Numbered from the stretch's first letter, positions 34,019 through 64,000 are shown. The stretch: 64,000 nucleotides of DNA from a virus (IMGVR_UViG_3300029305_004606:1-64000); one strand, 5' to 3'. Made by a program: numbers and translations. The notes: generated from the letters alone by a model not told the origin.

Positions 34019-35908
34019 ATGAGTATAATGTTTGATGCAAACAAAATAGGCAGAAAGAACAAGTATAATATTGAAACTGCTAAAATTACATTGGATATGA
34101 CTACTCTCAATGTATTTTGTAGATATATTTTACAGGATGCTAGAGTCATTAGAATGGAACACCTTGTAAATATGAGAAGACTATTATCAATTGTTGATAG
34201 GTCTACTTATGAGAACGACCCAGAAAAGGTAAAGCGTTTCAATTTCATATATAAAGTATTGGAAGCAAGACTTGAACAGAATTTAACAGATATGGATTTA
34301 ATTCTTCTTCATGTAAATGGAGGAATTAATTTTCAGGTTGATTTCTTAGATTATAATAATCTTGCAATGGACAAGTCTAATATTCAATATTGTCATAAAA
34401 TGGTAGAAGACTTATTAAAGTATTCATTCTTCTATAATGAAGCAGATAATTTACAAGAACTTATAACCAGATTTAAAACATCTGATATGTCTAAGAGAGT
34501 TAGTCTTATCAAAGAAACAGAACAACTTTTAGATAGAGTAAAAAATAAGTTTAGAAAAACTCATGTAGAAGATAATGTAAATGATGTATTCTTTTCATTA
34601 GAGGATGGTACTTTTGAGTCTGCTATTACTGATACATATAATATGGTAACTAACCCATCAAGAAGATTATACACTGGTATGCAAGGTTTCAATGAATTAA
34701 TTGGTGGTGGATTTGAATCCGGTCGTGTTTATATGTTATTGGGTGTAGCAGGTGTTGGTAAATCATTAACTTTGCTTAATTTAATTAAGCAGATAAAGAA
34801 ATATAATCCTATGGTTAAACCTAAGGACCCTACTAAAATTCCTTGTATTGTATTATTAACAATGGAAAATACTGTAGTGGAAACTATTACTCGTCTTTTT
34901 GATATGAGTATAGATAATTCTCATGGTATGGGTAACTATGAATTGAATGAAGTTATCTATAAATTAAGAACAGAAGGTGAGTTAACGATTAATGACTCTT
35001 CACCTTTAGATATTGTAATTAAATATAAACCTAATAGAAGTATCAGTACTGATTATCTGTATACATTATATGAGGATTTATTAGATCAAGGAAAAGAAAT
35101 GGTTTGTTTGGTTCAGGACCATATCAAACGTATTCGCTCAATCGATGGTCAGCAGGATATTCGTCTTGAATTAGGTGATATTGTAAACGAATTTAAAGTA
35201 TTTGCTGCAGATAAGGATATTCCTGTAATTACAATATCTCATCTTAATCGTGAAGCAACTCGTATATTAGAAGAAACAGCAAGAAAAGGAAATCAAGATA
35301 GTGGTAAACTTATTGGAAAATCTAATACTGGTGAATCATTATTAATGATTGATAATTTAGACTGTGGTATTACTATTGCGAGAGATTATGATAGAGATGG
35401 ATTATGTTATATGACATTTCATCGTATCAAAATGAGAGATAAGGGCAGTACAAGAGATTATATTGCTCAACCATTCTTACCTGACAATCCGATTAGATTG
35501 GTAACAGATGTTGGTGGAGTTCCTCAGTTCAAAGATTCGTTGCATAATGTTGAATTGCCTGGAAGTATTAATAACAATAGTAGAGTTAAAATGTCCGGTG
35601 CATCTGGATTTATTCAGCAGAATGATATTCTTGGTGTTATTGATACAAATGATACAGGAGACAATGCATTCAATAACAAGGTTACTTATAATCTTGAACC
35701 TGTTGCAGCAAATTATAATAATCCTGAATATACAGCTCAGATGGAAGCATTTGATGAAGAATTATCAGAGCTTATTGTTGAGGATGCAAAGAATAGAGAA
35801 GCTATGAACATCATTATGCTGACAAACTATAATCAGTTACCGTCAGCTAATCCACCTATTTGTCCAATCGAGTTTGTTAATGTTATTAAACCGATTGAAT
35901 TTGTGTAA
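34019..35908 (+). CDS. dnaB: DnaB-like replicative helicase
   Basis: TGMQGFNELIGGGF, GVAGVGKS, TMEN, QDHI, SHLNR. Confidence 0.88.
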   Translation: MSIMFDANKIGRKNKYNIETAKITLDMTTLNVFCRYILQDARVIRMEHLVNMRRLLSIVDRSTYENDPEKVKRFNFIYKVLEARLEQNLTDMDLILLHVNGGINFQVDFLDYNNLAMDKSNIQYCHKMVEDLLKYSFFYNEADNLQELITRFKTSDMSKRVSLIKETEQLLDRVKNKFRKTHVEDNVNDVFFSLEDGTFESAITDTYNMVTNPSRRLYTGMQGFNELIGGGFESGRVYMLLGVAGVGKSLTLLNLIKQIKKYNPMVKPKDPTKIPCIVLLTMENTVVETITRLFDMSIDNSHGMGNYELNEVIYKLRTEGELTINDSSPLDIVIKYKPNRSISTDYLYTLYEDLLDQGKEMVCLVQDHIKRIRSIDGQQDIRLELGDIVNEFKVFAADKDIPVITISHLNREATRILEETARKGNQDSGKLIGKSNTGESLLMIDNLDCGITIARDYDRDGLCYMTFHRIKMRDKGSTRDYIAQPFLPDNPIRLVTDVGGVPQFKDSLHNVELPGSINNNSRVKMSGASGFIQQNDILGVIDTNDTGDNAFNNKVTYNLEPVAANYNNPEYTAQMEAFDEELSELIVEDAKNREAMNIIMLTNYNQLPSANPPICPIEFVNVIKPIEFV

Positions 35909-35953
35909 CAGAAACAGTATGCTTGTAGGTATTATCTACCTACAAGCATCTTT

Positions 35954-36382
35954 TTATCTGTAGATTTTATTTATTGCTCTATTTTCCTGAATATATTTGG
36001 ACTCTTTTCCATAAATATCGTTAAGGAATGTTGCTAGTACACTAGCATATGGAAGCTTCACTGTTTTTACATTAAACTCTTTTGGATCGACCATATCATT
36101 CAATAATAATAAAACAAAGTCTAATTGAACTGACCCGTATAAATCATATGCTAATAAATCAGGATTATATTTATATCTCTTAAACTCTGTATCAGATAGA
36201 GATATAGTTTCACAAGTGCCAGCCAAGTGAGGTAAATAATCCTCTACGAGATTATGGTCAAGGTGGTGTACACCATTGATTACTTCCAAAATAGAGAAAT
36301 TATAATATGTCATATCATCTATATTTCTCATATTGATAAAATCTTGCAAAGTATAAGTGGTAGCAGGATTATGTTGAGCCAT
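35954..36382 (-). CDS. Baseplate wedge/LysM-like (T4 gp53-type) structural protein
   Basis: YKYNPDLLAYDLYGSVQLDFVLLLLN. Confidence 0.65.
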   Translation of the reverse strand: MAQHNPATTYTLQDFINMRNIDDMTYYNFSILEVINGVHHLDHNLVEDYLPHLAGTCETISLSDTEFKRYKYNPDLLAYDLYGSVQLDFVLLLLNDMVDPKEFNVKTVKLPYASVLATFLNDIYGKESKYIQENRAINKIYR

Positions 36383-36492
36383 ATCTCATACCCCTTTCTA
36401 TATAATTCTTTAATTATAAACATGTTTTTGAATTATATAATATATTTATGTAAACAAATGATACTATTTTTCATGCGAAAGGAGAAAACAAA

Positions 36493-36966
36493 ATGAAAGA
36501 CAATGAAAAATTGATTGAAGAAACGACAGGAACAGAAATTATCTGTCATTCTTTAGATGATTTGGAATTTTATGTAGCAGAATCAACCAAATTGATCGAA
36601 AGAAAACATGAAGAGTTATTAAAGGTTACAGTAGATAAACCTCTTTATGTAATCAAAAGAAAGGTAACTGATTCTGATAGCAATGATGAATTAGAAATTG
36701 TATTGATTTATGACTGTTGTTATGTGCTTTTCACATCAAAAGAATCAGCAGAAGCATTTATGGATTCTTTTATGGATATTTCTATGAAAGAAGAATGTGA
36801 AGTTGTAACTGTTTCTGATTACGGTGAATTATGTCATAGATTACCTATTTCTATGCTTGGAGATGGTCTTATTATGAAAAGAATTGAATTCAAATCAGAT
36901 GATGATGTTTGGCATTGTGAAGATCTTATTTATGATCCTGCCGATAACAATTCTAAAACAGAGTAA
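36493..36966 (+). CDS. Hypothetical early protein
   Basis: Early promoter at 36433-36451, RBS. Confidence 0.6.
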   Translation: MKDNEKLIEETTGTEIICHSLDDLEFYVAESTKLIERKHEELLKVTVDKPLYVIKRKVTDSDSNDELEIVLIYDCCYVLFTSKESAEAFMDSFMDISMKEECEVVTVSDYGELCHRLPISMLGDGLIMKRIEFKSDDDVWHCEDLIYDPADNNSKTE

Positions 36967-37021
36967 GAAATTACTCATTAATTTACAACCTATTAATTTT
37001 AAGGAGGATTAAGAAACATAT

Positions 37022-37681: not shown

Positions 37682-37724
37682 TTATATATGATACTATTAA
37701 TTTAAAGGAAAGGAATAAGGTGAA

Positions 37725-39875
37725 ATGGAGTACAAAGAACAATTCTATTATCCTTATAAGGAATTGTGTGAAACTGGCACGCAGACTATTCACACGAAAG
37801 ATTTAAACCAATCCAATATTGATAATCATTTCTACTCAATTATCAATATACTCAAAGATGGAGTAGAAAAACCTGAAGTGCAGAATATGATGATTCATGT
37901 TGTATTTGCTAACAAAGTAGATGTAGATTTAACTATATTTGATTACACTATCAACTTGATGTTCTGGAATCTCTGTACAGCAGTAGATCATCCAATTAAT
38001 GATGTACATTTGGTATTCTTTGAGAATATCACCAAGAGATTTATTAAGGAATATATCGATAATATCTTTATTGATAGATATCGTAAAAAGATTCCATTCA
38101 TTATGCTTAATCAGACTATCGATGCAGTAATTGGAAAATTCAGAGATCTCAGATTTATGCAAATGTATCTTGGTAATACTTTGAATCTTGAAGATACTAT
38201 TGACTTGATGAATAAGTATCCTGATTTTGCAGATACTATTCATTTCAATCCTGATGGTATTCCTATTGAAGATGTAAAAGAGAAAGGTATGGAAGCAACT
38301 GATTTACAGATTAGATATATCAAGAATTCTGATCACTGTTTAAGAGATTCATTCCGCACAGGTGAAGCAATATCACCTAAACAGTATAAAGAAGTTGCTG
38401 TTAATATTGGTTCAAAACCTGATGGTCAGGGATCAGTATTCCCTCATCCTATTCGTCATTCATTTATGAATGGTGGTTTACAGACTCCTGAAGAGGTAGC
38501 TATTGAATCATCAGTAGGTCGTGTAGCTCAGATTTTGCAGAAAACAAACGTTGGTGAATCTGGTGCATTTGCAAGATGTCTTGAATTAAATAATCAGGAT
38601 ACTATATTGCATCCTGATCCGACTTATATTTGTGATTCTCATAACTTTCAGGAAATTGTACTTGAAGATGATACAATGCTTCGTATGTATGATATGAGAT
38701 ATTATAGAGATAATCCTGACGGAGTAGATAAGTTGTTATCAGCTAAAACTGCAGATAAACAGAAGATGCTTCATAGAAAACTCTATTTCCGTTCTCCTAT
38801 GACTTGTGCAAGTGCTGCTAGAGGGCATGGTATTTGTTATAAATGTTATGGCGACCTTGCATATGTAAATAGAGAAGTTAATATTGGACAGATTGCAGCT
38901 GAAGGACTATCTTCAATTTATACTCAGATCTTATTGTCAGCAAAACATCTTCTTGAATCTTTGGTTGTTAAAATGGAGTGGTCTAAAGGATTTTATGATT
39001 ATTTCCAGATTACTTTTAATACCATAGCTTTGATTGAGAATAAAACCTATAGAGGTATTAAACTCATCATTGACGAGGATATTAAGTCTGAAGAAGAATA
39101 TGACGATGTAGATTATAATCACTACATCAATAGTTTCATTATCAGAAAACCTGATGGTGAAGAGTTTAAGATATCTACAACAAATACAGATAACCTGTAT
39201 TTTGATTCCGATTTCTATGAATATGTAATGTCAGTTCAGCCTGAGAATAACAGTTCCGAGGAACCTTATCATGTAGAGCTTAACTTAACAGACTTGATTG
39301 ATTTTCCTTGTCTTTTTGTAGTTGAGATTAAGAATAACGAATTATCTGCGACTATGAATAAGATTGAAAAGCTTATCAATAACAAGAGTGTAATTTCTTT
39401 ATATGATAGGAATTCAATTCTCAAAGAATTTATTACTACAAATATTCAGGGTAATATTAAGCTCAATGCAGTCCACTTCGAAGTTCTTCTGATGAATCAG
39501 ATCAGAGCATTTGATGATGAGCTTGAGAAACCTGATTGGACAAATCCCGGTGAAATTTGTCAGATTCTCACTTTGGATAAATCGTTGTCTAATAATCAAT
39601 CTATAACTGTAAGATTGCAGAGTTCGAAAGTACAGAAGGCTTTGGCAAATCCTCAGAATAGATACATCTGTAGACCTTCTATGACAGATATTTATTATAT
39701 GGAACAGCCTCAGGAGTACTTAGACGAGGAGTTCATTTCTGACGAATATACACCTAAGTCTGATGTTGAGCAACCTATTATTGAACCTATTACTTTCTCT
39801 AACCCTAAGATTAGAGTTGGTCGTAAGGTAGAAAAGCGTAAGATTCCCAAGAAGAATTTCCGCAGAGATTATTAA
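37725..39875 (+). CDS. Phage RNA polymerase beta' C-terminal subunit (probably non-virion RNAP)
   Basis: SFMNGGL, VGESGAFAR (bridge helix), FRSPMTC...GICYKCYG, NIGQIAA...TQILLSAKH (trigger loop), VHFEV. Confidence 0.88.
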   Translation: MEYKEQFYYPYKELCETGTQTIHTKDLNQSNIDNHFYSIINILKDGVEKPEVQNMMIHVVFANKVDVDLTIFDYTINLMFWNLCTAVDHPINDVHLVFFENITKRFIKEYIDNIFIDRYRKKIPFIMLNQTIDAVIGKFRDLRFMQMYLGNTLNLEDTIDLMNKYPDFADTIHFNPDGIPIEDVKEKGMEATDLQIRYIKNSDHCLRDSFRTGEAISPKQYKEVAVNIGSKPDGQGSVFPHPIRHSFMNGGLQTPEEVAIESSVGRVAQILQKTNVGESGAFARCLELNNQDTILHPDPTYICDSHNFQEIVLEDDTMLRMYDMRYYRDNPDGVDKLLSAKTADKQKMLHRKLYFRSPMTCASAARGHGICYKCYGDLAYVNREVNIGQIAAEGLSSIYTQILLSAKHLLESLVVKMEWSKGFYDYFQITFNTIALIENKTYRGIKLIIDEDIKSEEEYDDVDYNHYINSFIIRKPDGEEFKISTTNTDNLYFDSDFYEYVMSVQPENNSSEEPYHVELNLTDLIDFPCLFVVEIKNNELSATMNKIEKLINNKSVISLYDRNSILKEFITTNIQGNIKLNAVHFEVLLMNQIRAFDDELEKPDWTNPGEICQILTLDKSLSNNQSITVRLQSSKVQKALANPQNRYICRPSMTDIYYMEQPQEYLDEEFISDEYTPKSDVEQPIIEPITFSNPKIRVGRKVEKRKIPKKNFRRDY

Positions 39876-40291: not shown

Positions 40292-41920
40292 ATGGACAGA
40301 ATAAAAGTTACAAATACTTCCATTATAGTCGAAAACTATACAATGGGAGAGTCCGAACAATTAGAAAAACCTTTTAGAATATATGATCCTATTACACATA
40401 AAGTATTTTATAAAGGGTTTTATTATGATGAAGAAAATAAGAGATTATATCTTCCTGCAGGTATGGACATTTGGTATGTTCGTAAAGCATTAGGAGAAAA
40501 ATATTATACAAGAATAGATTCAGAACCATTTCAAATGATTGATAATGTAATGATAAAGTTCAAGCCCAGAGATGAGGAACAAGTTGAAGCTTTAAAGTTT
40601 ACCTGTAATGTAGGTGAGTATGAAGACAACAAGTATCTACATCAGCTGAGTTTGAACCTGTTTACTGGTAAAGGAAAAACATATGTATCTATTGCTACTA
40701 TTTGTTTTTTCAAAATCAAGAGTATTATCATTACTGGTTCTAACTCGTTATTATCACAATGGGGAGAAGAGATTTGTAAATATACAAATTTAAAGCCAGG
40801 TGATATAGTTTCTATTAATGGATCAGAATATTGTAATATGATTCTTAATGGTTCGTCTAATAAAGCTAAGAATGGTAAAGTTTTCTTATGCAGTCATGGT
40901 ACATTAAGATCGTTTGGTGATAGATATGGTTGGGACAAAGTGTCTCAATTATTCAGAGAATTAGGAATTGGTATGAAGTTTTATGATGAAGCTCATACTA
41001 ATTTTGACAATATGTTGATGATAGACTTCTTTACCAATACTTTTAAAACTTTTTATGTAACAGCTACACCTGGTAGAAGTAATTGGAAAGAAAATCATAT
41101 ATTTCAGATATCATTAAAGAATGTACCTGGTATTGATTTATTTGATGAAAATAATGATCCTCATACTAGTTATGTAGCTATTAAATGGAACTCTAATCCG
41201 ACTCCACAAGCAGTATCAGCATGTAAAAATGTTTATGGATTAGATAGAAATAAATATATCAATTATGTTACTCAAAAACCTGAATTTTATGATATGATGA
41301 GAATTATAATGGATATGGTTATCAAATGTAAGGGTAGAGTTTTAATGTATATTGGTACTAATGAAGGTATATTGAGATTATATCATTGGCTTGGTAAAGA
41401 ATATCCTGAGTTTCTTGGAGATATAGGTATATTTACATCTCTCTTGGATAAAACTCAAAAGCAAAAAGATAAGAAAAAGAAACTTATCATATCTACTACA
41501 AAATCTGCTGGTCTTGGAGAGCATATTGAAGGATTAAAAATGACTATAGTGTTAGCTGAACCTTTTAAATCTGAAATTATCACAAGACAGACATTAGGTA
41601 GAACACGAGATAAGAATACTTTGTATATAGAATTAGTAGATATGGGATTTAGATATTGTAGAAAATTTTATAACGATAAACTTCCTATATTTAATAAATA
41701 TGCAAGTGATGTTTCTGATACTACAGTTGATTCTTATGAATTAACTAGAAGAGCAAAAATTCTTAAAGCTGAAAGAACTCATTATCAGATTTGTCCAATT
41801 GAATTAGCTGATGATAGATTTGATTTTAGTTTTATCAAAGATAAACAAACAGGACCTATTTGTCCTATAGAATTTATCGATACCGATCCTTTATCCAGTA
41901 TAAAATATCGTAAAAGATAA
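40292..41920 (+). CDS. SF2 DEAH helicase (UvsW-like)
   Basis: TGKGKT, DEAH, TAT, QTLGRTR; follows the beta' C subunit as in phiKZ-like phages. Confidence 0.88.
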   Translation: MDRIKVTNTSIIVENYTMGESEQLEKPFRIYDPITHKVFYKGFYYDEENKRLYLPAGMDIWYVRKALGEKYYTRIDSEPFQMIDNVMIKFKPRDEEQVEALKFTCNVGEYEDNKYLHQLSLNLFTGKGKTYVSIATICFFKIKSIIITGSNSLLSQWGEEICKYTNLKPGDIVSINGSEYCNMILNGSSNKAKNGKVFLCSHGTLRSFGDRYGWDKVSQLFRELGIGMKFYDEAHTNFDNMLMIDFFTNTFKTFYVTATPGRSNWKENHIFQISLKNVPGIDLFDENNDPHTSYVAIKWNSNPTPQAVSACKNVYGLDRNKYINYVTQKPEFYDMMRIIMDMVIKCKGRVLMYIGTNEGILRLYHWLGKEYPEFLGDIGIFTSLLDKTQKQKDKKKKLIISTTKSAGLGEHIEGLKMTIVLAEPFKSEIITRQTLGRTRDKNTLYIELVDMGFRYCRKFYNDKLPIFNKYASDVSDTTVDSYELTRRAKILKAERTHYQICPIELADDRFDFSFIKDKQTGPICPIEFIDTDPLSSIKYRKR

Positions 41921-42041: not shown

Positions 42042-43478
42042 ATGATGACAGCATTAAACACATTTAATCCACTTATAGTAGCAGCTGTTAACCCTTTCGT
42101 TATTAATAACGATTATACTATTAAGGTGGAAAACAAACCTAAAAAAGAAAAGAAAAGTTCCAAATTTAATTCTAAGGAAGCAGACAAGTTCGTTAATCAG
42201 GGACAAGTTTCTAACAGATTATACGAAGATATTTGTAAGATGGCTAAAGATAATGCATTTTTGCGTTTAGTCTTTGTTTCCAAGGGTATCGAAACAAATC
42301 AGTGGATTAGATTTGCCATTTATTATATGACAGATCCGCTTGCAACAGCTATATCATTTGCAGACGAAGAATCTAGAGAATTAGTTAATGCTATCTCTAT
42401 ACTGGCTGGTTTCGGTAAAGTCTATGAAAGCAATAGTGTTGCTAACATAGACGAATATGATAGTACACAATTAAATTCTGAGTATACAGGTAGATTCTTG
42501 TTGAACAAACCTGAGCTGGTTGATTTTTTATCAACTGTACAGTTCCAGTCAGTTATGGCAGCTAGAAAATTCAGAATGAACGAAACTATTCTTGAAGGAC
42601 CTGTGATGATTACTGTAGATGAAAGTGAACTTCGTTATGTGGACGAACAGAAAAAATCTATGGCTAATCCAGCATTTGCAATTCTTGATGCTGATGATGA
42701 AGAAATTGTTCAACCTAGTTTTACTATTAATGAGTCTAATTCATTTAGTCCACTTGAGTTTAACATAAAGCCTAAAGTTATGCCTAAAAAAGGTGAAGGA
42801 ATCGATGCTCATACCTATACAAGATTTGAAGCTATGATAGGAAAATATATTCCTGAAACTATTCATTATCATTACGAATGTATTAATGGTATCTATCATC
42901 TGTTTATTACAAGACCTGATACAGGTGCAGAAGAAATGTATATTATTGATAATGGTAGTATTGTTGGTGGAAGTACAGTAGCTATTTTAGGTATGTATGT
43001 AAATTCTGAAGGCTTTGAACGATACAGATTTGTTGATGTATTAGCTCATCCGGCAATTGTTTCTAAGATTCTTGATAGAACTATATTTAACTATCTGAGT
43101 TTTCAGGAATTAGAAGATGTACAAGGAGATTATTTGTATAATTATAGAATTTATAATAACATTGATTTCCATAATACAGATTTCTTTGATGATTTGAAAC
43201 CTGAAGATAAATATGATTTTGAATCTTCGTTACTTGCAGTTATGAGTTCAATCGATTTGGCTGGATTTGGAAATGTAAGATTTAGATTTAGCTCATATGA
43301 TAATCCTCATAATTTTACATTAGTTTCAGATTTTAATATGTATCGTCCGCTACCGTTTATCCAGGATAAAATGATGCCTGAGACTTATGTTGTAGAAGGT
43401 TTAGAGATTTCCGTTGTTCCTGATCATGTATATATCAAAATGAACAATGAAATTATAAATAGCTATAGAATAGGATGA
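42042..43478 (+). CDS. Hypothetical protein (early)
   Basis: 478-aa ORF, RBS AGGAGG. Confidence 0.65.
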   Translation: MMTALNTFNPLIVAAVNPFVINNDYTIKVENKPKKEKKSSKFNSKEADKFVNQGQVSNRLYEDICKMAKDNAFLRLVFVSKGIETNQWIRFAIYYMTDPLATAISFADEESRELVNAISILAGFGKVYESNSVANIDEYDSTQLNSEYTGRFLLNKPELVDFLSTVQFQSVMAARKFRMNETILEGPVMITVDESELRYVDEQKKSMANPAFAILDADDEEIVQPSFTINESNSFSPLEFNIKPKVMPKKGEGIDAHTYTRFEAMIGKYIPETIHYHYECINGIYHLFITRPDTGAEEMYIIDNGSIVGGSTVAILGMYVNSEGFERYRFVDVLAHPAIVSKILDRTIFNYLSFQELEDVQGDYLYNYRIYNNIDFHNTDFFDDLKPEDKYDFESSLLAVMSSIDLAGFGNVRFRFSSYDNPHNFTLVSDFNMYRPLPFIQDKMMPETYVVEGLEISVVPDHVYIKMNNEIINSYRIG

Positions 43479-47941: not shown

Positions 47942-48523
47942 ATGTTTGATGAATTTAAGAAAAAGATAATTAATCCTATAGAATTTGTTAAACCCGGTGA
48001 ATCCTATGCTATTACTCCAATCGAAAGATTAGAGCAGGTTAACGGAATTACAAGTTTTGCCATCCTTAAGACTACTGAGGGTGGTAAGTATATGAGAGGT
48101 AATATGTTATATTATCATCTCAATGGTGTTAGTATCTATACAGATCCTAATAACGTTATTTTTGTTGATACAGTAAACAATATGATGTGGGTTAGAGAGT
48201 ATGAAAAAGTATTAAAAGAAATCGAACCTGATAATCCTGAAGAAAAACAATATATTATGCTCTATACGGATTTATGCTACGAAGATGATGATCAGGAATA
48301 TCCTTTTAGGTGGGAAGCGGTAACTGGAAGATCAAGTGCATATGATGCTATCAAAATTAATGCTCCTGTAATTGATATTGATAAATCACTTGTATTGGTT
48401 GAAACAGTAGGTTTTAAAGACGCTTTAACTGTAAGGCAATTTATTGATTATCTGCAAAATTCTGGCATAATCGAAGATGATACTTTCAGTACAGAAGATT
48501 ATACAGGCTCAGATTATATTTAA
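47942..48523 (+). CDS. Hypothetical early protein with N-terminal PIEF motif
   Basis: Early promoter at 47904-47922; KIINPIEFV. Confidence 0.65.
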   Translation: MFDEFKKKIINPIEFVKPGESYAITPIERLEQVNGITSFAILKTTEGGKYMRGNMLYYHLNGVSIYTDPNNVIFVDTVNNMMWVREYEKVLKEIEPDNPEEKQYIMLYTDLCYEDDDQEYPFRWEAVTGRSSAYDAIKINAPVIDIDKSLVLVETVGFKDALTVRQFIDYLQNSGIIEDDTFSTEDYTGSDYI

Positions 48524-50863: not shown

Positions 50864-53221
50864 ATGGCTGTATTATCAAAAGAACAAATAGCATCAATTG
50901 ATAATTATAGTAACGAAATTAAGACATTAAAAGATTTCGTTAGTGCTGTTAGAAAAAGACCTGGTATGTATCTTGGTCCAATCAGTAACAAAGGTCTCTT
51001 AAATATGATGAGAGAAATTTTTCAGAACTGTATTGACCAGATTTTAGATCCTACCAGTCCAGCAAATTGGTTTTCGTTCTTCTACGATGAAAGAACACTT
51101 GAGATTATTGTTGAAGATAATGGTAAGGGATTTCCTTTCAATGATATTGTAAGAATACTTACATCTCAGCACACTTCAAAGAACTTTGAAAAGAAACTTG
51201 GAGATTATTCTTCTGGTATGAATGGTGTAGGTTCTAAGATTGTAAATGCATTATCTGAAAGATTTACAGCAGAATCTTTTAGATATGATGGTACTGCTGT
51301 AAAGGTTGATTTTGTTAAAGGATATCCGAAGACAAATGAACCTGTTAAAATTTCTAATAAAGAAAACAAACAAGGTTCAAGAATTACATTTGTTCCTGAT
51401 ACTGAAATTCTTGGAGAAATGAATCTTGAATGGAAGGTTGTATATAATCTGATTAAGAATATTATGTCACTTACTCCTATTGGATCAGTATGTGACTTTG
51501 CTGCTATAGATATCAATGGTAAACAGTTTACCGAGCATATTGTAAACAAAGATGGTATTATTACAAACTTGATTATGAATGTGAAGACTCCTATGGTTAA
51601 ACCTATTGTATTATCTATGGATGACGGTGTTCATAAATTAGAAGCAGCTTTCTGTTATGATACCGGTGGAGAAGACGGTCCTGATGATTTGTCAGTTACA
51701 TCTTTTTGTAACTTCTGTCCATCATATGGTACACATGTTGATGGTACTGTTGACGGTATTTGTAGATGGTTTTCTATGTATATGAATAATATTTATCTGG
51801 CTAATCAGAAATCAAAAGATAAAACAAAGGTATTACCTATTGATATTAAGTCAGGTTTGAATATATTTATCTCTGCAGCTCATTTAGAACCCGTGTTTAC
51901 AGGTCAGGCAAAAGAAATCCTATCTAATGAAGATATGATTGGATTTTGTAAAGAAGTAGCAATGAAAGGTCTTGATGAGTGGAGCAAAGCCAATCCTCAG
52001 GATTTAGCAAAACTTGCAAAATTCTTTAAAGAAATTGCAGATCTTCGTATGAAGCAGGAAGCTGGCAAGGCTAAAATTGCTACAAAGTATGCAAAGAATC
52101 CGGTTACAAATTTACCTCGTAAATATATTAGACCTCTTACTAATAAAGATAATGAACTTATAATAGTTGAAGGAGATTCTGCTCTTGGAAAAGCTGAAGA
52201 AGATAGGGATCCTAATACTCAAGGTCTGTTTCCAATAAGAGGTAAAATTATTAATGCTTTTAAGGCAAGTAGACAAGCTTTCTTCAGCAATGAAGAAGTT
52301 CAGGGTATTACTCGTATCACTTTTGGACAAGATTATCGTAAAGGTCTTACTATAGAAGATGCTAAAGTGAAAAAAATCATATTTATGACCGATGGTGATA
52401 TTGATGGTGCTCATATAGCAGCACTTTTGCTTCGAATGTTCGTTATGTATTATCCGTTTTTAATAGAAGCTGGTATGGTATATAAGGCTATTCCTCCTTT
52501 ATACAGTATCAAAGACGGAAAGAAAACAAGATACTTTACAGATAATCTTGATATGATTAGATATATTCAGAAATTCTTCTTATCATCGAATGAATTTAAG
52601 TCTATAGATAATAAAGATCTTAGCTCAAAAGAGATTACTAGTTTCTTCTTAAAAAATGCTGATTATATTTATTATATCACAAGAACCGCTAGTACTTATG
52701 CTGTAGATCCTTATTTGCTCGAAATGGTATTAATACATTATCTCTTAAATAAGAAAACTATCAAGTTTGAGAAACTTCAAAAAGAAGTAAAATCTGTATA
52801 CAGATTTATGGATGTATATAAAGAACACGGAACTATCGTTGTTAGAGGTTCTATTGACAAATCAAACTTGATTATTATCAGTGATAAATTCTTAAGAGAT
52901 TGTGCTGATATTCTTCGTATAATGGAATCAAATGATAGCCTTTATTATATGCTCAATAAACAGAAAAGTTCACTGCTTACTGTAATGAAAGTATATGAAT
53001 CTAATACGCCTAAAGATATTCAGCGATACAAGGGTCTTGGTGAAATGGGAGATGGTCAGCTTGGAGAATCTACTCTTAGACCTGATTCTGATAGAATGCT
53101 TATCAGATATACTATGGATAGTGCTAAAGAAGCTATTAACTTCATTAGAGAATATGAATCTGATACAAAGAAGATTCTATCTGAAGTTGGTGTTGTTACT
53201 AGGGATGATCTGTTAGACTAG
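50864..53221 (+). CDS. gyrB: Type IIA topoisomerase subunit B
   Basis: AVRKRPGMYLG, EIFQNCID, DNGKG, GMNGVG, VEGDSA, PIRGK, MTDGDIDG, RYKGLGEM. Confidence 0.92.
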   Translation: MAVLSKEQIASIDNYSNEIKTLKDFVSAVRKRPGMYLGPISNKGLLNMMREIFQNCIDQILDPTSPANWFSFFYDERTLEIIVEDNGKGFPFNDIVRILTSQHTSKNFEKKLGDYSSGMNGVGSKIVNALSERFTAESFRYDGTAVKVDFVKGYPKTNEPVKISNKENKQGSRITFVPDTEILGEMNLEWKVVYNLIKNIMSLTPIGSVCDFAAIDINGKQFTEHIVNKDGIITNLIMNVKTPMVKPIVLSMDDGVHKLEAAFCYDTGGEDGPDDLSVTSFCNFCPSYGTHVDGTVDGICRWFSMYMNNIYLANQKSKDKTKVLPIDIKSGLNIFISAAHLEPVFTGQAKEILSNEDMIGFCKEVAMKGLDEWSKANPQDLAKLAKFFKEIADLRMKQEAGKAKIATKYAKNPVTNLPRKYIRPLTNKDNELIIVEGDSALGKAEEDRDPNTQGLFPIRGKIINAFKASRQAFFSNEEVQGITRITFGQDYRKGLTIEDAKVKKIIFMTDGDIDGAHIAALLLRMFVMYYPFLIEAGMVYKAIPPLYSIKDGKKTRYFTDNLDMIRYIQKFFLSSNEFKSIDNKDLSSKEITSFFLKNADYIYYITRTASTYAVDPYLLEMVLIHYLLNKKTIKFEKLQKEVKSVYRFMDVYKEHGTIVVRGSIDKSNLIIISDKFLRDCADILRIMESNDSLYYMLNKQKSSLLTVMKVYESNTPKDIQRYKGLGEMGDGQLGESTLRPDSDRMLIRYTMDSAKEAINFIREYESDTKKILSEVGVVTRDDLLD

Positions 53222-53262: not shown

Positions 53263-53886
53263 ATGAAACATAGAAGACGATACACTTCAGTAGAAAGTGT
53301 TTTAGATATTTATGATCATAATAGATGCTGGTACTATATTCCTGGCTTTAATGGATATGAAGTATCTAACGATGGTTATATTCGTTCTATGAAACATTAC
53401 TTAAGATATCCTTATGGAATTCTCATTAGTCCAGTTACAAGAGAACCTTATGGATCTAGTTGTGATCCATTATTTGAAATCTCTGATGATAATAATGTAA
53501 GAAGAAGAATTAGATTGTCTCAATTAATTCATCTTGCTCATACAAGTAATTATCATGCAGCTGGATATCCTAGAGCTACTATTATTACAGATAATACCTC
53601 TAGAAATAAATATGTAAAAAATCAAAATGGAGCATATGTGAAGGTTTATAATGGTAATAAACCAGGTGGAGGTAGAAAATCATTTACTATACCACCTATG
53701 GATAATTCTGTACACTATGCAAAATTTACTATCATACAAGAAGGGAACGAATTACCAAGAATGACTTATTGTCAACCTGAAGTACAAGTTCCAATAGAAT
53801 CAATCAAAGGAGACGAATATTATGGCAGAAAAGATTGTAGAGCGATCAGCCACCTCAATGTATGTGGAAGATCAGGCGAAGTATAG
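53263..53886 (+). CDS. NUMOD4-motif protein, probable degenerate homing endonuclease
   Basis: WYYIPGFNGYEVSNDGYIRS; no intact HNH motif seen. Confidence 0.6.
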   Translation: MKHRRRYTSVESVLDIYDHNRCWYYIPGFNGYEVSNDGYIRSMKHYLRYPYGILISPVTREPYGSSCDPLFEISDDNNVRRRIRLSQLIHLAHTSNYHAAGYPRATIITDNTSRNKYVKNQNGAYVKVYNGNKPGGGRKSFTIPPMDNSVHYAKFTIIQEGNELPRMTYCQPEVQVPIESIKGDEYYGRKDCRAISHLNVCGRSGEV

Positions 53887-56188
53887 TATCGTTGCCAATA
53901 GACGTAGAGCAATTCCTGCAGTACAAGATGGATTAAAACCTGTTCAAAGAAGATCTTTATATGGAGCATTTAAGAAAGGTTTTAGAAAACCTAGTCAACA
54001 TGGCAAATCAGCTCAGCTTACTGGTCTGGTTATGGGCGATTATCATCCACATGGAGATAGTTCAATTTATGATGCTTTTGTTACTATGGCTGCTTGGTAT
54101 AAAATTAAATATCCATTAATGTATGGATATGGTAACTGGGGTAATGTTTCTGGAGCTGGAGCAGCAGCTCAACGATATACTGAAGTTGCACTTAGTGATT
54201 TCGGCTATGATGTTATGATTGACGAATTAGCACAATCAACAAATATTGTAGACTGGATTGATACTTATACAAGAAAAGATAAGGAACCTGAATATCTTCC
54301 AGCTAAATTACCTAATCTTTTAATTAATGGAGCATTTGGTATCGGTGTTGGTATGAGTATTAATGTACCGTCTCATAATGTAGGAGAAGTTATTGATGTT
54401 ATTATCAATCTTATCAAAAATCCGAATGCTAAAGCTGTATTAATTCCCGATCTTATTCAGGAATGTGATATTGTAAATACAGATTGGGAGGAAATTTCTA
54501 ATACTGGTAGAGGTTCTTTTAAAGTGAGAGGTAGAATTATTACCGAACAGGACAAGAACGGTAATTATACTTTAAGAATTGTATCATTACCTGATCAGGT
54601 TACTACTACATCAGTATATGAAAAAATCCTTGATATGATTGCTGACAAACAGCTCCCTATGGTTAAGGATGTATTCAACTCCTTACAGAATAAGAAGCCA
54701 AATATTATTATTAATTTATCTAAAGGAGCTGATCCTGGATATGTAAAGCAGGCTATTTATGCTAAAACTAAAGTTCAGGATTCAATCAATGTAAACTTTG
54801 AAGCAGTATCTATGAATGGTATTGACTTGGAGAGATTCTCATATAAGAAATATCTTATGGATTTTATCGATCAGAGAATGTCTATTAAATTTAGACTGTA
54901 TTGTAATCTACTTCAGCAGGTTATGACAAAACATCTTCAGATCGATGCATTAGTTAAAGTTGTTGGTTCCAAAGAATTTGACAAACTTATGAATATGATT
55001 CGTAAGTATAATGGAACAGATGCTGAGCCTATTGTTGAGTTTATGATCAAGAATTGTGGAGTAAGTGATATTCAGGCTAAATATATTTTAGCAAGAACTC
55101 TTCCTCAGCTTTCCAAAGGTCATCTTGCCGCATATATCAAAGAAAGAGATGAATTGCAGAAGAAAATTGATATTTACATGCAATATGTAACCGACGATGG
55201 AACTCTTATTAAGAATGAGATTATCGAAGAGCTTCAGGAATTAAAGAAGAAATATAATACTCCTAGACTCTGTACTATTGTTGATGCAAAAGAAAATGCT
55301 GATATCCCTAAAGGTATCTTTAAGGTTATTATTACAGAAAGAAACTATATTAGAAAGATTCCTGATGTAGATAAGATTGCTGTAATTAAGAAAGATAATC
55401 CTAAATTTATTCTTCGAGTTGACAATGCAGAGAATCTGCTTATCTTTGACAATAAAGGTAAAGTATTTAGTCTTCCGGTTCATAAGATTCCTATTACAGA
55501 TAGAAGTGGTATTGGTACAGATGTAAGAATTCTTATCAAGAACTTGACATCTAATATTGCTTCTGTTTATTATGAACCTATCTTTGATAAGATTAGCAAA
55601 GGAACAAATAAGCACTATCTTACAGTATTAACTAAGTCTAATACTATTAAGAAACTTGATATTGAAGATTTCTTAAATGTATCACCATCTGGTCTTATGT
55701 ATTCTAAGATTAGACCTGAAGATGAAGTTGTTGGAGTATCTTTGGTACCTCACAATCTTGACATTGCTATTTGTAGTGGAAAGAAAGTTTTGAGATGTAA
55801 ACTTAAAGATGTACCTTTGTATAAGAGAAATGCTGCTGGTTCTAGAGCTATGTCTAGTAATGAAGATATGACTGGATTATCAGTATTATATCCTGATAGT
55901 ACAGATATTGTTGTAGTTACAAAGAATGGTAAGTTTAACAGATTCAATATTGCTATGCTTACTTGTAGTGCAAGAGGTAGAAGTGGTAATAAAGTAATTA
56001 AGCTGGATAATAATGATGATATTCTGAATGTATTTGCTGTAAATGAAACTGATAAAATCAGATTACTTACAACAGATGGAGTTGAAGAGATTAATGTATC
56101 AGATATCAAAGTTAAATCCAGTATTGCTGCTGGTACTAAAATGGTACAAAGTAAAGGTGTTATTGTAAAAGCTGATGTTATAAGATAA
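53822..56188 (+). CDS. gyrA: Type IIA topoisomerase subunit A with beta-pinwheel CTD
   Basis: RAIP...DGLKPVQRR, YHPHGDSSIY, AAQRYTE (catalytic Tyr), PNLLING, PSHN. Confidence 0.92.
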   Translation: MAEKIVERSATSMYVEDQAKYSIVANRRRAIPAVQDGLKPVQRRSLYGAFKKGFRKPSQHGKSAQLTGLVMGDYHPHGDSSIYDAFVTMAAWYKIKYPLMYGYGNWGNVSGAGAAAQRYTEVALSDFGYDVMIDELAQSTNIVDWIDTYTRKDKEPEYLPAKLPNLLINGAFGIGVGMSINVPSHNVGEVIDVIINLIKNPNAKAVLIPDLIQECDIVNTDWEEISNTGRGSFKVRGRIITEQDKNGNYTLRIVSLPDQVTTTSVYEKILDMIADKQLPMVKDVFNSLQNKKPNIIINLSKGADPGYVKQAIYAKTKVQDSINVNFEAVSMNGIDLERFSYKKYLMDFIDQRMSIKFRLYCNLLQQVMTKHLQIDALVKVVGSKEFDKLMNMIRKYNGTDAEPIVEFMIKNCGVSDIQAKYILARTLPQLSKGHLAAYIKERDELQKKIDIYMQYVTDDGTLIKNEIIEELQELKKKYNTPRLCTIVDAKENADIPKGIFKVIITERNYIRKIPDVDKIAVIKKDNPKFILRVDNAENLLIFDNKGKVFSLPVHKIPITDRSGIGTDVRILIKNLTSNIASVYYEPIFDKISKGTNKHYLTVLTKSNTIKKLDIEDFLNVSPSGLMYSKIRPEDEVVGVSLVPHNLDIAICSGKKVLRCKLKDVPLYKRNAAGSRAMSSNEDMTGLSVLYPDSTDIVVVTKNGKFNRFNIAMLTCSARGRSGNKVIKLDNNDDILNVFAVNETDKIRLLTTDGVEEINVSDIKVKSSIAAGTKMVQSKGVIVKADVIR

Positions 56189-56571: not shown

Positions 56572-56590
56572 TAAATCTTGAGGAGATGAA

Positions 56591-58751: not shown

Positions 58752-58803
58752 TGAATTATAATTTGATTATATAATATAAATATGTATAATCAGAGGAGGT
58801 ATT

Positions 58804-59220: not shown

Positions 59221-59307
59221 TAAATGATACTATGAGATAATACCTAGGGTATGTAATAATACCCTAGGTTTTTATAAGATGATATTACTAAAACTCGGAG
59301 GTTAAAA

Positions 59308-61533
59308 ATGGCAGGATTAGGATTTTCAGATAAGATAGCAGAGAATACTAAAAATCTCCAATCTATGGAACATATGTTGGGAAAAGGTCTTATGCAACCT
59401 TTTAATAACACAAATGCAGGATCAAGAAAGATAATGTTCTCAGTTCATAAAGAACATGTCTTTCCTCTTATGAGTGCTGAAAAAGCAATAATAGAAACTG
59501 GATATGAGATCAGATATGGTGATTATTCAAGTTCTATTACAAGAGCTGATACAGATTATATTGTAGTAGCAAAGATAAGCAAGTTTTCTTTTGCACCAAA
59601 TCATCATTATTGGTTGATTATTAGAGATACTAAATCTAATAAAATCGATGTTGTAGAAAGAATCTCATATCATTATGTAACAGAATCTTATGGATATCTC
59701 TATAATAATGAATATTTGGATTCTTTATCTATAGGAGATTATATACCTAACGGTCAAGTAGTTCAGAAATCTCTTGCATTCGATGAATATAATAATAGAG
59801 CCGATGGAGTAAACTTCAATGTTGCTTATATGGCTCTTGATGATAATATGGAAGACTCAATTGTTTGTTCAGAAGCAGCCCAAAGAAAATTAGTATCTCC
59901 ACTTGTAAAACCTGTAGAGATTACTATTAATGACAATGATATTCCGGTAAATCTTTATGGAAATGATAAGGTTTACAAAATCATTCCTGATATTGGAGAA
60001 GAAATTGTAGATGCAAATCTTATTGCTCTCCGTAAAGAGAAGAAAGAAGAATCATATTTTACTCAGTCTATTAATAACTTGAGCAAGATTATGATTTCTG
60101 ATGATAAAAAGAGAGTTCATGGTAGAGTTATCGATGTTAACGTATATTGTAACAATCCTGAGATTCTTGATTCTCATTATTATGCTCAAATTAAGATGTA
60201 TTATAATGAGCTTCACAGATATGCGAGAGAAATTGTACATGCAGTAACACCTCTTGTATCTGCTGGTTGTGATATGACTTATGAACTTGAGAAATTATTT
60301 GCCAATTGCAAACGTGTTATGAACAATGATATGTATATTGATAAGAGACCTTTCTCTAATATTATTCTTGAAGTGGATGTACTTGAAGAAAATATGATTG
60401 AAGCTGGAGACAAGATGTCTAACAGATATGGTGGTAAAGGCGTTATTTCTAAGATTCTTCCTATGGATCAGATGCCTAGATTTAAGAATGCTAGAGGTGA
60501 ATATGAATATCTCGATGTAATCTTCAATTCATCTACTATGATCAACCGCGAAAATACAGGACAGAACTTTGAATTATCATTGAACCATATTTCTGCAGAA
60601 ATTATCAATTATATAGTTGGTAATAACTTGAGCTTGGAAGAAGCTTATGGTTTGATTTATAAGTTTGTATCAATGTGTGCTCCAGAGCAGGCTGCTTATA
60701 TGGAAGAAAGAAGAAGATCTATGTCAAGAGACGAACTTATCTTCTATGTAGAATCAATTATCAATTCTGGTACTATTCATCTTAGTATCAAACCTATTTC
60801 TGAATCTATGGATATCGATAGACTCAGAGATATTTATGCAGCATTTCCATTTGTGCAGCAAAATCTTGTAGAGGTTCCTATTGAAGGTTCTGATGGAAGT
60901 ATCAGATATGTACCTGCAAGAAGAAGAATGGTAATTGGTAAGCAGTATATTTACAGATTAAAACAGTTTGCTGAAGAGAAGTTTTCTGCAACTTCATTGT
61001 CAGCAACTAATATCAGAAATGAAAATACAAAATCTAGAGTTAAGAAAGACTTTAGAGAATTGTATCCTAATACACCGATTAGATTTGGTAATATGGAAAC
61101 CAATAATATGGCTCATATCGGTGTAGAAGCTCTTATCTCTAATATGATGATTCATAGTTTATCTCCTCAGGGTAGAAGATTAGTAGAGCAGATGTATACT
61201 GGAGATCCGTTTAAGATTGATATTAAACTTAATAGTGATTCTAAGAATAGATCTGCAGAAATTGCTAATACTTATTTGAAGGCTATTGGTAGACGACTTA
61301 GATTTATCAAGAGAAAGAAGAACTTTTCACAAATTACTATTTCTCCTATTAGCTTTGACAGAGATCCTTATCAAAGACCAATTTCATTTGTTCCTAAAGA
61401 TCAAAGAGCAGGATTTGATTATGTGAAAGATTATGAAGAGAGACAGAAGTATGAAGAATTGAAGAAGAAAGCAGGTGCTTTTTCTCCGATTGAATTTGAA
61501 GGTATAGATACAAGGAGAGTTAAGGAGGATTAA
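59308..61533 (+). CDS. Phage RNA polymerase beta C-terminal subunit (probably non-virion RNAP)
   Basis: PFNNTNAGSRKIM, NMEDSI, GDKMSNRYGGKGVIS, RENTGQ, YRLKQFAEEK, IRFGNME. Confidence 0.9.
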   Translation: MAGLGFSDKIAENTKNLQSMEHMLGKGLMQPFNNTNAGSRKIMFSVHKEHVFPLMSAEKAIIETGYEIRYGDYSSSITRADTDYIVVAKISKFSFAPNHHYWLIIRDTKSNKIDVVERISYHYVTESYGYLYNNEYLDSLSIGDYIPNGQVVQKSLAFDEYNNRADGVNFNVAYMALDDNMEDSIVCSEAAQRKLVSPLVKPVEITINDNDIPVNLYGNDKVYKIIPDIGEEIVDANLIALRKEKKEESYFTQSINNLSKIMISDDKKRVHGRVIDVNVYCNNPEILDSHYYAQIKMYYNELHRYAREIVHAVTPLVSAGCDMTYELEKLFANCKRVMNNDMYIDKRPFSNIILEVDVLEENMIEAGDKMSNRYGGKGVISKILPMDQMPRFKNARGEYEYLDVIFNSSTMINRENTGQNFELSLNHISAEIINYIVGNNLSLEEAYGLIYKFVSMCAPEQAAYMEERRRSMSRDELIFYVESIINSGTIHLSIKPISESMDIDRLRDIYAAFPFVQQNLVEVPIEGSDGSIRYVPARRRMVIGKQYIYRLKQFAEEKFSATSLSATNIRNENTKSRVKKDFRELYPNTPIRFGNMETNNMAHIGVEALISNMMIHSLSPQGRRLVEQMYTGDPFKIDIKLNSDSKNRSAEIANTYLKAIGRRLRFIKRKKNFSQITISPISFDRDPYQRPISFVPKDQRAGFDYVKDYEERQKYEELKKKAGAFSPIEFEGIDTRRVKED

Positions 61534-61582
61534 TCCTCCTTAACTCTTTTTATTAATAATACCAGAAAGGATACTTTAAATC

Positions 61583-62194
61583 ATGAGAGTTATGATTAAC
61601 TTTTCAATTTTAACTCTTGGTACAGATGGTAATAGAATTAATAATATAATAAATACAAATTCTCAACTCCTACAATTTCAAAAGACTATTGTTGACTATA
61701 ATGATCAATATGCTTTGTCTACATATGACAAAAATACTATATTTGAAATTGCCAAGGATGTTGGGGATTTGGCAAATATATCGATGCAATCCGTAAAGCT
61801 TAAAGATTTTACTTTTTTCTACGAAGATTCGATTTGTTTTAAAGTTCAGGGTAGCAATATATACCAGCTGAATAATTTATCTGCTAATATTAACAAAGAA
61901 ACTATTATAAGAGGATTCAATATATCATTTCAGGAATATTTGGAGAGACAGATTATTACTGTAGAAGATTTTCGAAATGGTAATCTGACTGAAGATTTTA
62001 TTATATTGAATTTGTATGTTCTTGAAAAAGGAAAACCTTGTGCTGTAATAGAACCAGGTGAATTAAAAAGTAAATCTCCTCATCCTTGTTGGAATTTTGT
62101 TGCAAAATTAAGACGAAATGATTGCAGAAGATCTTTAAATGAAGAAGAATATACTGATGAAGATGATGAGAATTATAATGATGGCTGGATATAA
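61583..62194 (+). CDS. Hypothetical protein
   Basis: 203-aa ORF with RBS. Confidence 0.6.
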   Translation: MRVMINFSILTLGTDGNRINNIINTNSQLLQFQKTIVDYNDQYALSTYDKNTIFEIAKDVGDLANISMQSVKLKDFTFFYEDSICFKVQGSNIYQLNNLSANINKETIIRGFNISFQEYLERQIITVEDFRNGNLTEDFIILNLYVLEKGKPCAVIEPGELKSKSPHPCWNFVAKLRRNDCRRSLNEEEYTDEDDENYNDGWI

Positions 62195-62238
62195 TTTCTC
62201 ATAGTTATATATTATAAATATGAGAAAAGGAGGTTATT

Positions 62239-64000
62239 ATGAACAGTTTTGATTATTCGAAAATTCAAGATATATTGAATCATCTGTTAGCGAGAGATTT
62301 AAATATCATGACATCTGACAATATTAAATTTGTCAATGATTGTGCTATAAATTTATATCAGATTCCTTATATGAAATATACTCCATCTGATATTGATGGA
62401 TTAAAGAGTATATTAAGAATCTGTAATATCTTGTATAATAGGACTGACCTGAGAGTTCTTCCTATAGAAGATGGATTTTATGATTTGCTCTTAGAATTAT
62501 ATAAGAGATTTGATCCTAATTTTCAGGTTGGATCTGATGTTATAGATTTCGAGTCTGGTACAGATTTTACAACCGATATCGTTAAAAAAGAAATAATATG
62601 TCCAATTGAATTTGTGCCACCAAGAAAGAAAAAAGGTGATGATGATCTTAGAGATCATATATATAATGAAATTATTATGAAAGGAAAATCTACTCTGAAT
62701 AAGAGAGATTTTTATACTTCTCCAATTGAATTCGAAGCAGCTTATATTCCTAAGAGACTTCATAATATTGAACACAATCATCCAACTCTTGTTGGTACTT
62801 TAGATAAAGCAAAATTTGTATTAAATCAGGATGCTATAAATGCTGGTGTATTTAATGATCCGAATGTAAGTATACTAGAAAGAGATTTCTTTCAGGATCA
62901 TCTATCAAAAGGTATCTATGATAAAAATAGAGTAATTCATATTGTTTGTGAAATAAAGTATGATGGAATTTCTGTAGAAGGAGATTGTAATTTTACTCTT
63001 CAGTCTGCTAGATCAAGAGGAGATACAGGAATGGGAGCAGCAAGTGATATGACTCCTATATTGAAGGATTATATATTCAAAAATGCTGCTTGTATGATAG
63101 GCGAAGAACCTGTTGGAGTTAAGTTTGAAGCGATTATGACTAAATCTGATTTATATCGTTTCAATATAGCAAGAGGTAAGAATTATGCAAACTGTAGAAC
63201 AGCTATAGTTGGTCTCTTTGGTGCTAGTGATGCATATTTATATAGAGATTATATTACATTGGTTCCTCTTGCTTTGGACTTAGAACAATTTAATGCAACT
63301 CATCCTAATATTGCTATTACAGATAGATTATCTGAAATTGCTTTCATCAACAGTGTATTCACTTCTAATGGTGAACCTTTAAGATATTGTGTATTTAGCG
63401 GAACTGTTGGCGAAGTATTGTATTTGATAAAAATGTTTGTTGATGAGGCTAAGTATGCTAGAGATTTCTTAAACTTCATGTATGATGGAGTTGTAGTTAG
63501 TATTCTTGATGAAGATATTAGAATGACACTTGGTAGAAAGAATTTCATTAACAAATTCTCTATGGCTGTTAAATTTGATCCACTTGAAAAACAAACTACT
63601 TTTAGAGGATATACTTACGAAGTAGGTCAGCATGGAGATATTACACCTATGATTCATTATGATCCAGTAGAATTTAATGGAACTATTCATACAAAATCAA
63701 CTGGATCGTCTTTGAATAGATTCAAAGATCTTGGTCTTAGACCTGGAGAAATTATCAATGTAACTTATGTAAACGATGTAATGCCTTATGTAAGTAAATT
63801 GGATTGTGTACAAAACAGAGAAAACACCAATCCACCAATTCCATTCATTTCAGAGTGCCCTGTATGTGGTTCCAAACTTATGGAATCTACTTCTGGTAAA
63901 TCTGCATATTGTCCTAATCATGAATGTCCTGCAAGAACAGTGCAGAGAATGACAAATATGTTTGCTAAAATGAATATTAAGGGATTTGCTGCAGCTTCAT
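62239..64000 (+). CDS. ligA: NAD-dependent DNA ligase (3'-truncated by window; missing from ORF track)
   Basis: ATG at 62239 after AGGAGG; GTLDK, EIKYDG (adenylation Lys), SRGD, DGVV, AVKF, OB domain, CPVCGS...CPNHECPA zinc finger. Confidence 0.92.
   Translation, partial: MNSFDYSKIQDILNHLLARDLNIMTSDNIKFVNDCAINLYQIPYMKYTPSDIDGLKSILRICNILYNRTDLRVLPIEDGFYDLLLELYKRFDPNFQVGSDVIDFESGTDFTTDIVKKEIICPIEFVPPRKKKGDDDLRDHIYNEIIMKGKSTLNKRDFYTSPIEFEAAYIPKRLHNIEHNHPTLVGTLDKAKFVLNQDAINAGVFNDPNVSILERDFFQDHLSKGIYDKNRVIHIVCEIKYDGISVEGDCNFTLQSARSRGDTGMGAASDMTPILKDYIFKNAACMIGEEPVGVKFEAIMTKSDLYRFNIARGKNYANCRTAIVGLFGASDAYLYRDYITLVPLALDLEQFNATHPNIAITDRLSEIAFINSVFTSNGEPLRYCVFSGTVGEVLYLIKMFVDEAKYARDFLNFMYDGVVVSILDEDIRMTLGRKNFINKFSMAVKFDPLEKQTTFRGYTYEVGQHGDITPMIHYDPVEFNGTIHTKSTGSSLNRFKDLGLRPGEIINVTYVNDVMPYVSKLDCVQNRENTNPPIPFISECPVCGSKLMESTSGKSAYCPNHECPARTVQRMTNMFAKMNIKGFAAAS

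Follow-up and report, generated by a model that had tools for sequence, protein, structure and literature searches.

How do jumbo phages that encode their own multisubunit RNA polymerases bring together the enzymes of replication and late transcription? Phages of this kind, which also carry a split family B DNA polymerase (PolB), have been described as being without a recognisable sliding clamp. The question is raised here by the first 64 kb of the virus record IMGVR_UViG_3300029305_004606 (genome positions 1–64000, referred to as the window; GC content about 30%), in which a short peptide recurs on a set of replication and transcription enzymes. The full record is 200,990 bp long and is rated complete by CheckV. 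Its source is an uncultured jumbo phage, of which AR9 is a distant cultured relative; the beta subunit of its non-virion (late) RNA polymerase (nvRNAP) is about 31% identical to those of the Bacillus phages AR9 and PBS1 and of Staphylococcus and Listeria jumbo phages. An earlier note, made from the sequence alone, had taken the peptide x-P-I-[E/S/T]-F, called the tag in the following, for a docking motif read by one hub protein of the phage. It was found that the tag is real, that it is selected as a peptide, that it is confined to the class of nucleic-acid enzymes, and that it is conserved and respelled in each lineage. The docking-motif reading of the tag is well supported. The receptor is, with a probability of roughly 0.55, a predicted clamp-fold protein encoded next to PolB at genome positions 75919–76551. 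The system as a whole is classed as a variant of the sliding-clamp client-motif system; its proposed clients, polymerase and ligase among them, have in common a short hydrophobic peptide on their flexible ends or loops.

The frequency of the tag was determined in the ORF (open reading frame) calls of the whole genome, which comprise 218 ORFs and 62,567 residues. The pattern PI[EST]F was counted 15 times, compared with an expectation of 1.3, and the maximum reached in 200 within-protein shuffles was 5. PIEF was observed 8 times (0.5 expected) and ICPI 6 times (0.19 expected), and both head the ranking of over-represented tetrapeptides when the terminal 40 residues of proteins with at least 150 amino acids are considered. 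As an off-frame control, the five non-coding frames gave 5 matches to PI[EST]F in 339,409 residues. Annotated nucleic-acid enzymes account for 16.6% of the residues and hold 11 of the 15 copies (P = 1.9e-6), and 13 of the 15 are no more than 70 residues away from a protein end, where 4.9 would be expected (P about 1e-5). No PI[EST]F is present in the 9,604 residues of annotated virion, lysin-like and virion RNA polymerase proteins, which bears out the earlier note in its claim that the structural proteins, the lysin and the virion RNA polymerase are free of full copies. The pattern common to the 15 seed copies is [I/F/T/Q/E/G]-x-P-I-[EST]-F. The core of the tag can be written as [I/F]-x-P-I-[E/S/T]-F and a looser form as x-[P/A]-[I/V/L]-x-F, the general consensus being hydrophobic-x-[P/A]-[I/V/L]-x-F. 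With a position-specific scoring matrix (PSSM) the top score in the genome is 25.4, and it is common to the ICPIEFV copies of the DnaB-like helicase and of the ligase.

Two simpler origins of such a peptide were considered and rejected. Codon usage varies among the tag copies, from which selection at the level of the peptide had already been argued, and a recent origin of the tag as a DNA repeat is rejected because the codons differ. A reading as a degron or as a protease site is likewise rejected because copies are N-terminal, C-terminal and internal, are often multiple, and are limited to nucleic-acid enzymes.

The copies in the window all lie on the plus strand, and every copy that had been listed in the earlier note was found in frame at its position. 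The DnaB-like helicase (gene 34019–35908) carries ICPIEFV at 35858–35878, corresponding to residues 614–620, and IKPIEFV at 35885–35905, which forms its final seven residues; the DnaB domain extends to about residue 489 of 629, and both tags are at the extreme C-terminal end. The beta'-C subunit of nvRNAP (gene 37725–39875), identified through chain D of the AR9 nvRNAP structure PDB 7S00 with residues 67–599 aligned, has IEPITF at 39780–39797 in its C-terminal tail. A superfamily 2 (SF2, ResIII) helicase (gene 40292–41920) has two copies in its C-terminal tail, the weaker ICPIEL at 41789–41806 and ICPIEFI at 41858–41878. A 193-residue protein without a Pfam or PHROG family (gene 47942–48523) carries INPIEFV at 47969–47989, i.e. 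at residues 10–16. Three copies are found in the C-terminal tail of nvRNAP beta-C (gene 59308–61533), namely ISPISF at 61339–61356, QRPISF at 61372–61389 and FSPIEF at 61480–61497; the Rpb2_6 domain of this subunit extends to residue 563, relatives align only up to about residues 661–666, and the three tags lie beyond. The NAD-dependent ligase (gene 62239–64656, which runs past the end of the window) has ICPIEFV at 62596–62616 and TSPIEF at 62716–62733, both in an N-terminal extension that precedes the adenylation domain, which begins at residue 218. Domain limits taken from Pfam, PHROG and PDB alignments thus place the tags outside the catalytic cores, in agreement with the earlier note. Among its copies only FSPLEF, at 42744–42761 in a variable linker of a 478-residue protein of unknown function (gene 42042–43478), has become doubtful. 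It is the weakest of them, with a PSSM score at noise level, and in three orthologues it is not conserved at the corresponding column. FSPLEF sits in an insertion that is missing from these orthologues, and HPIFF or HPIFV is found in them about 12 residues upstream. Such a shift of the tag within the linker is turnover typical of short linear motifs.

The list of carriers in the window stood, and the set proved to be wider once the rest of the genome was included. Outside the window, nvRNAP beta-N (66346–68157, identified through 7S00 chain c) carries SPIVF and ICPIQN, so that up to three tags are present on one nvRNAP subunit and six over three subunits. SPIYF is found at the N-terminus of a Zn-ribbon protein, and SPIIP, SPIEF and SPIIF occur in the C-terminal tail of the N-terminal part of PolB (73923–75911, plus strand). 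A tag-like DPLIF is present in the tail of RNase H (103394–104107, PF00075), and N-terminal copies are present in two proteins of unknown function. The phrog_12252 protein (124125–124946, minus strand) ends in ICPISFDPSLIKR and the resolvase RusA (153042–153527, plus strand) begins with IVPISFDPSLIG. The C-terminal end of the former and the N-terminal end of the latter have in common an extended tag, PISFDPSLI(K/G), and F-D/N-x-S-L-I-K recurs at the extreme end of DnaB in several lineages; the extension may represent a second contact element. The GyrB-like and GyrA-like topoisomerase subunits, UvsX, the SF1 helicase, SbcC and nvRNAP beta'-N are without a tag, as are the sigma-4-like protein and all pieces of the virion RNA polymerase. 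It should be noted here that the N-terminal part of PolB (662 residues) contains the exonuclease domain and motif A (DFKSLYPS, residue 506) only, i.e. the polymerase is split, and its tags are located at the split point. A pattern search of the whole genome for motifs B and C gave no match.

A megablast search of the window region against a phage collection returned no relative at the DNA level, and when DnaB or the clamp alignment was used to look for related loci in IMG/VR, none was confirmed. Metagenome assemblies contain hundreds of related contigs of 100–290 kb, and the relatives compared here are Logan and ENA contigs. Among 120 DnaB orthologues with 55–90% identity the C-terminal tails differ in length and in sequence, and nearly all of them retain one or two tags. 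The spelling of the DnaB tag changes with the lineage, from CPIEF to SPIIF, CPVEF, QAITF, PAVTF, VVSF and SPITI. In the lineage denoted L009, RPAV[TI]F is found twice on DnaB and again on beta' and on the SF2 helicase; lineage L010 uses [CSH]PI[TSE][FI], and lineage L011 is mixed (AITF, EPITF, CPIVF, SPIKF). Orthologues of nvRNAP beta'-C have RPAVTF, HPISF or EPITF at the same place, and SF2 helicase orthologues have KPAFAL, SPIEL or CPIVF at the place of ICPIEL. The enrichment, the terminal position, the limitation to one class of enzymes, the conservation in DnaB and the respelling throughout a lineage all fit a docking tag that is read by one hub, as the earlier note had proposed, and the clamp-like hub that it had named among other possibilities now has a concrete candidate; the binding as such is an inference.

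The candidate is the clamp-fold ORF, which begins eight bases after the N-terminal part of PolB and encodes 210 residues. It has no Pfam family at E <= 0.1 and no PHROG. An AlphaFold 2 (AF2) model of the protein, built with 19 homologues, has a predicted local distance difference test score (pLDDT) of 88 and a predicted template modelling score (pTM) of 0.84. The top 50 matches of the model in a Foldseek search of the PDB were all bacterial beta clamps, with a best E value of 9e-4. In an exhaustive VIA search, which is independent of Foldseek and covered 48,161 chains, the processivity clamp gp45 of phage T4 (6drt_A) came first, with Z 9.4, a root mean square deviation of 4.3 and 181 of 210 residues aligned. 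It was followed by subunits of the 9-1-1 complex, the African swine fever virus clamp, PCNAs, beta clamps and herpesvirus processivity factors. The top 38 rows (Z 5.8–9.4) are all clamps or processivity factors, and unrelated rows appear from Z 4.8. The predicted fold thus has the two clamp domains per protomer that characterise DNA clamps, and the VIA and Foldseek matches agree on this. Of 1.8 billion cluster representatives, 235 match the family at E <= 1e-3. In all relatives examined a clamp-fold protein adjoins PolB. The order of the N-terminal part of PolB followed by the clamp is kept in five relatives, in which the clamps are 38–62% identical or more distant, and the PolB tails of these five carry tags of the type P-[ILV]-x-F, namely CPIEF/SPVIF, SPLVF, DPLVF, TPIVF and CPIYD/SPFISL/KPLINF.

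The closest parallel is found in T4, where each gp45 protomer has a hydrophobic patch to which polymerase, ligase, gp33 and gp55 attach by their clamp-binding motifs, an attachment by which RNA polymerase is tethered to the clamp when late genes are transcribed (PMC7892883). In T4 ligase the motif, LDFLF, is part of an internal loop, and RNase H is a proposed additional client of gp45 (PMC6212786). As in T4, one short hydrophobic peptide is found here on flexible tails and loops of the polymerase, of the ligase (internal in both phages) and of the late-transcription machinery. With RNase H counted in, the set of tagged enzymes corresponds in kind to the clients of gp45. The candidate receptor has a two-domain clamp fold for which gp45 is the best PDB match, the clamp gene adjoins the polymerase gene, and both systems predict late transcription that is coupled to replication. 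The two also differ in several respects. The tag reads x-P-I-[EST]-F instead of LDFLF, the clamp and gp45 are not similar in sequence, and no loader resembling gp44/62 was found in the genome. In the present phage the tags are borne directly by the multisubunit RNA polymerase of the phage itself, on its core subunits, whereas in T4 the motifs are on sigma-like adaptors of the host enzyme. Furthermore DnaB, the SF2 helicase and RusA are tagged here, and many proteins carry two or three copies.

By analogy with gp45, the following mechanism is favoured. The tag, placed on flexible ends and linkers of DNA- and RNA-handling enzymes, would act as a short docking peptide, and each clamp protomer would offer a hydrophobic site for it. 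PolB, RNase H, ligase, DnaB, the SF2 helicase, RusA and nvRNAP could then dock by turns. Docking would concentrate these enzymes on the replicating DNA and would tie late transcription to replication, and several tags on one protein could add avidity for a multimeric receptor. We infer three things here, namely the predicted binding of the tag to the clamp, the riding of the clamp on DNA as a ring or in some other way, and the coupling of late transcription to replication. A complex prediction with three copies of the clamp-fold protein and DnaB residues 590–629, run without controls, gave a score of 0.02, which speaks neither for nor against the binding.

A second comparison comes from the chimalliviruses, in which a split PolB and nvRNAP are likewise present and which 'lack identifiable sliding clamp proteins' (bioRxiv 10.64898/2026.10.01.755736). 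These phages use the protein Rhc, in which an RNase H is joined to a clamp-derived domain; Rhc binds DNAP-C and DNA, nvRNAP subunits are recovered with it in pull-downs, and late transcription is supported by it (bioRxiv 10.64898/2026.10.01.755736). Both are jumbo phages with split PolB, a DnaB-like helicase, nvRNAP and no clamp that can be recognised by sequence, and the clamp-derived domain of Rhc works without a loader together with polymerase, DNA and nvRNAP subunits. Rhc is thus an instance, in a related group of phages, of a clamp-like factor that serves both polymerases without being loaded. The differences lie in the way in which the partners are held. Rhc binds the thumb of DNAP-C through a folded interface and not through a shared linear tag, whereas a proteome-wide tag exists in the present phage; here the clamp stands alone, and RNase H is encoded by a separate, tag-bearing gene 27 kb away. 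An hhalign comparison of the clamp profile with phiKZ gp155 (Rhc) gave a probability of 0.2, and there is no sequence similarity between the two. RNase H likewise has no similarity to phiKZ gp155, and a tblastn search of it against phages returned no match. A bolder proposal, which we put forward tentatively and regard as somewhat improbable, is that nvRNAP is tethered directly, through as many as six tags on three of its core subunits, to a clamp-like processivity factor that works without a loader and organises the replisome as well. Late transcription would then be coupled to replication in a manner that arose independently of T4 gp45/gp33/gp55, and tag and receptor would co-evolve so fast that each lineage has a private code, possibly insulating co-infecting phages from each other.

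Several observations weigh against the clamp-fold protein as the receptor. DnaB and RusA are outside the classical clients of clamps. The protein has no sequence match to the Pfam clamp families (PF00712 for beta clamps and PF09116 for gp45 gave no match in the genome at E <= 10) or to phiKZ Rhc, and the structural Z values of 8–9, obtained with a predicted model, are moderate. A clamp loader was not found, as the genome has no match to PF13177 and no P-loop gene lies near the clamp. Genes with a Walker A motif are those of DnaB, the SF1 helicase, UvsX, SbcC and five other ORFs, none of them near the clamp, and a very divergent loader may escape such a search. Because no loader was found, a canonical loaded ring is not supported; by analogy with herpesvirus UL42/UL44 or chimallivirus Rhc, the clamp-fold protein may act without one. 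The co-variation of the tags rests on one clearly respelled lineage, L009, as L011 is mixed. Finally, other candidate receptors were screened less thoroughly than the clamp-fold protein.

One of these other candidates is a 412-residue protein encoded three genes after the clamp-fold ORF (genome 78952–80190, plus strand, outside the window). The tag could dock on this or on another phage protein, such as a scaffold factor or one that resembles a single-stranded DNA-binding protein (SSB), and so build a factory or condensate for replication and transcription. The multivalency of the tags, with two or three copies per protein, would suit such an arrangement, in which the unusual standing of DnaB and RusA as clamp clients would cease to be a difficulty, and no canonical SSB was found in a Pfam search of the genome. 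The 412-residue protein is conserved and adjoins the clamp in relatives too. In its AF2 model residues 1–100 are acidic and disordered and are followed by two beta-rich domains, for which weak PDB rows to PH/PTB, Pur-alpha and OB folds were obtained (Z 3–4.7). These fold matches are at noise level, none exceeding Z 4.7, and genome position is all that links the protein to the tag. In addition, polymerase, ligase and RNase H are textbook clamp clients and a clamp-fold protein is present. A receptor of this second kind is therefore unlikely, although the 412-residue protein itself may be a binder of single-stranded DNA or an alternative receptor of the tag. The genes after the clamp were also considered as clamp paralogues or loader subunits. 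The only trace was a 13-residue match, FKKKxNRDI, found by hhalign between the clamp and the 412-residue protein, the segment FKKK[ID]NRDI lying in the C-terminal hairpin of the clamp. A search of the protein atlas gave nothing, and the idea was rejected.

It is also conceivable that the enzymes dock on the beta sliding clamp of the host (DnaN), in which case the phage would hijack both the host clamp and the host loader. The bacterial beta-clamp motif, QL[SD]LF or QLxLxL, is short, hydrophobic and terminal and ends in F or L, and in these respects the tag is like it. The tool-belt principle of the beta-clamp motif and of the PCNA-interacting peptide (PIP) box, in which many enzymes carry one short terminal peptide that fits a pocket of the clamp, is shared as well, and the missing phage loader would be explained, as the host loader could load DnaN. 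However, the tag has no glutamine and has a proline at the second core position, where beta-clamp motifs have leucine. None of the 15 seed copies begins with a Q-L pair, so the beta-clamp consensus is not followed, and core subunits of an RNA polymerase are among the clients. The spelling drifts between closely related phage lineages; therefore a fast-evolving phage receptor fits better than the conserved clamp of a host, and the phage has a clamp-fold protein of its own. Docking on DnaN is for these reasons very unlikely, and unlike in the beta-clamp and PIP-box systems the receptor is probably encoded by the phage.

The least probable alternative, and the one part of the earlier proposal that has fared badly, is that the tag is an address to a replication compartment such as a nucleus-like shell or vesicle: the carriers do resemble the nuclear imports of chimalliviruses (helicase, ligase, RNase H, nvRNAP subunits) (PMC13282480) and three nvRNAP subunits are each individually tagged, as separate import would need, but no tubulin was found in a Pfam search of the genome (chimallin and PicA were not searched directly), AR9-like phages are stated to be without chimallin and known import is reported to use surface patches and not terminal linear signals (PMC13282480), and both topoisomerase subunits, UvsX, the SF1 helicase, SbcC and nvRNAP beta'-N would need import and are untagged.

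If the clamp-fold protein does bind the tag, three consequences would follow. The tag would in effect list the clients of the clamp, several proteins of unknown function included. Clamp-activated late transcription as it is known from T4 would extend to phage-encoded RNA polymerases, and replisome-associated proteins could be annotated by means of a sequence signature in thousands of contigs from uncultured phages. No publication was found in which a tag or a clamp of this kind is described for jumbo phages that encode RNA polymerases themselves. The earlier note had claimed as much for a linear motif of this kind, and the literature searches agree, the principle being known from the clients of T4 gp45.

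AR9 (NC_031039) served as a negative control. The same pipeline applied to it gave 2 copies of PI[EST]F against 1.7 expected, i.e. no enrichment, and AR9 has no match to the clamp profile. The beta-C subunit of AR9 stops where the tagged tail starts in the present phage. The top terminal tetrapeptide signal in this control run came from three AR9 proteins (loci L019–L031) that share RIWDCG(N) within 40 residues of an end; the peptide probably marks paralogous mobile endonucleases and is unrelated to the tag studied here.

A few neighbouring genes may be mentioned. In the window an HNH endonuclease ORF (53263–53886, plus strand) lies between the GyrB-like (50864–53221) and GyrA-like (53822–56188) topoisomerase genes, with an overlap into the first part of the GyrA-like gene; the ORF has probably been inserted as a homing endonuclease. 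Beyond the window, the clamp-fold gene is directly followed by a nucleoside 2-deoxyribosyltransferase-like gene (76548–77237), and a tyrosine recombinase is encoded at 82418–83497. A dCMP-deaminase fusion protein is encoded at 85217–86503, and in relatives a dUTPase is also found nearby. The DNA of AR9 and PBS1 contains uracil.

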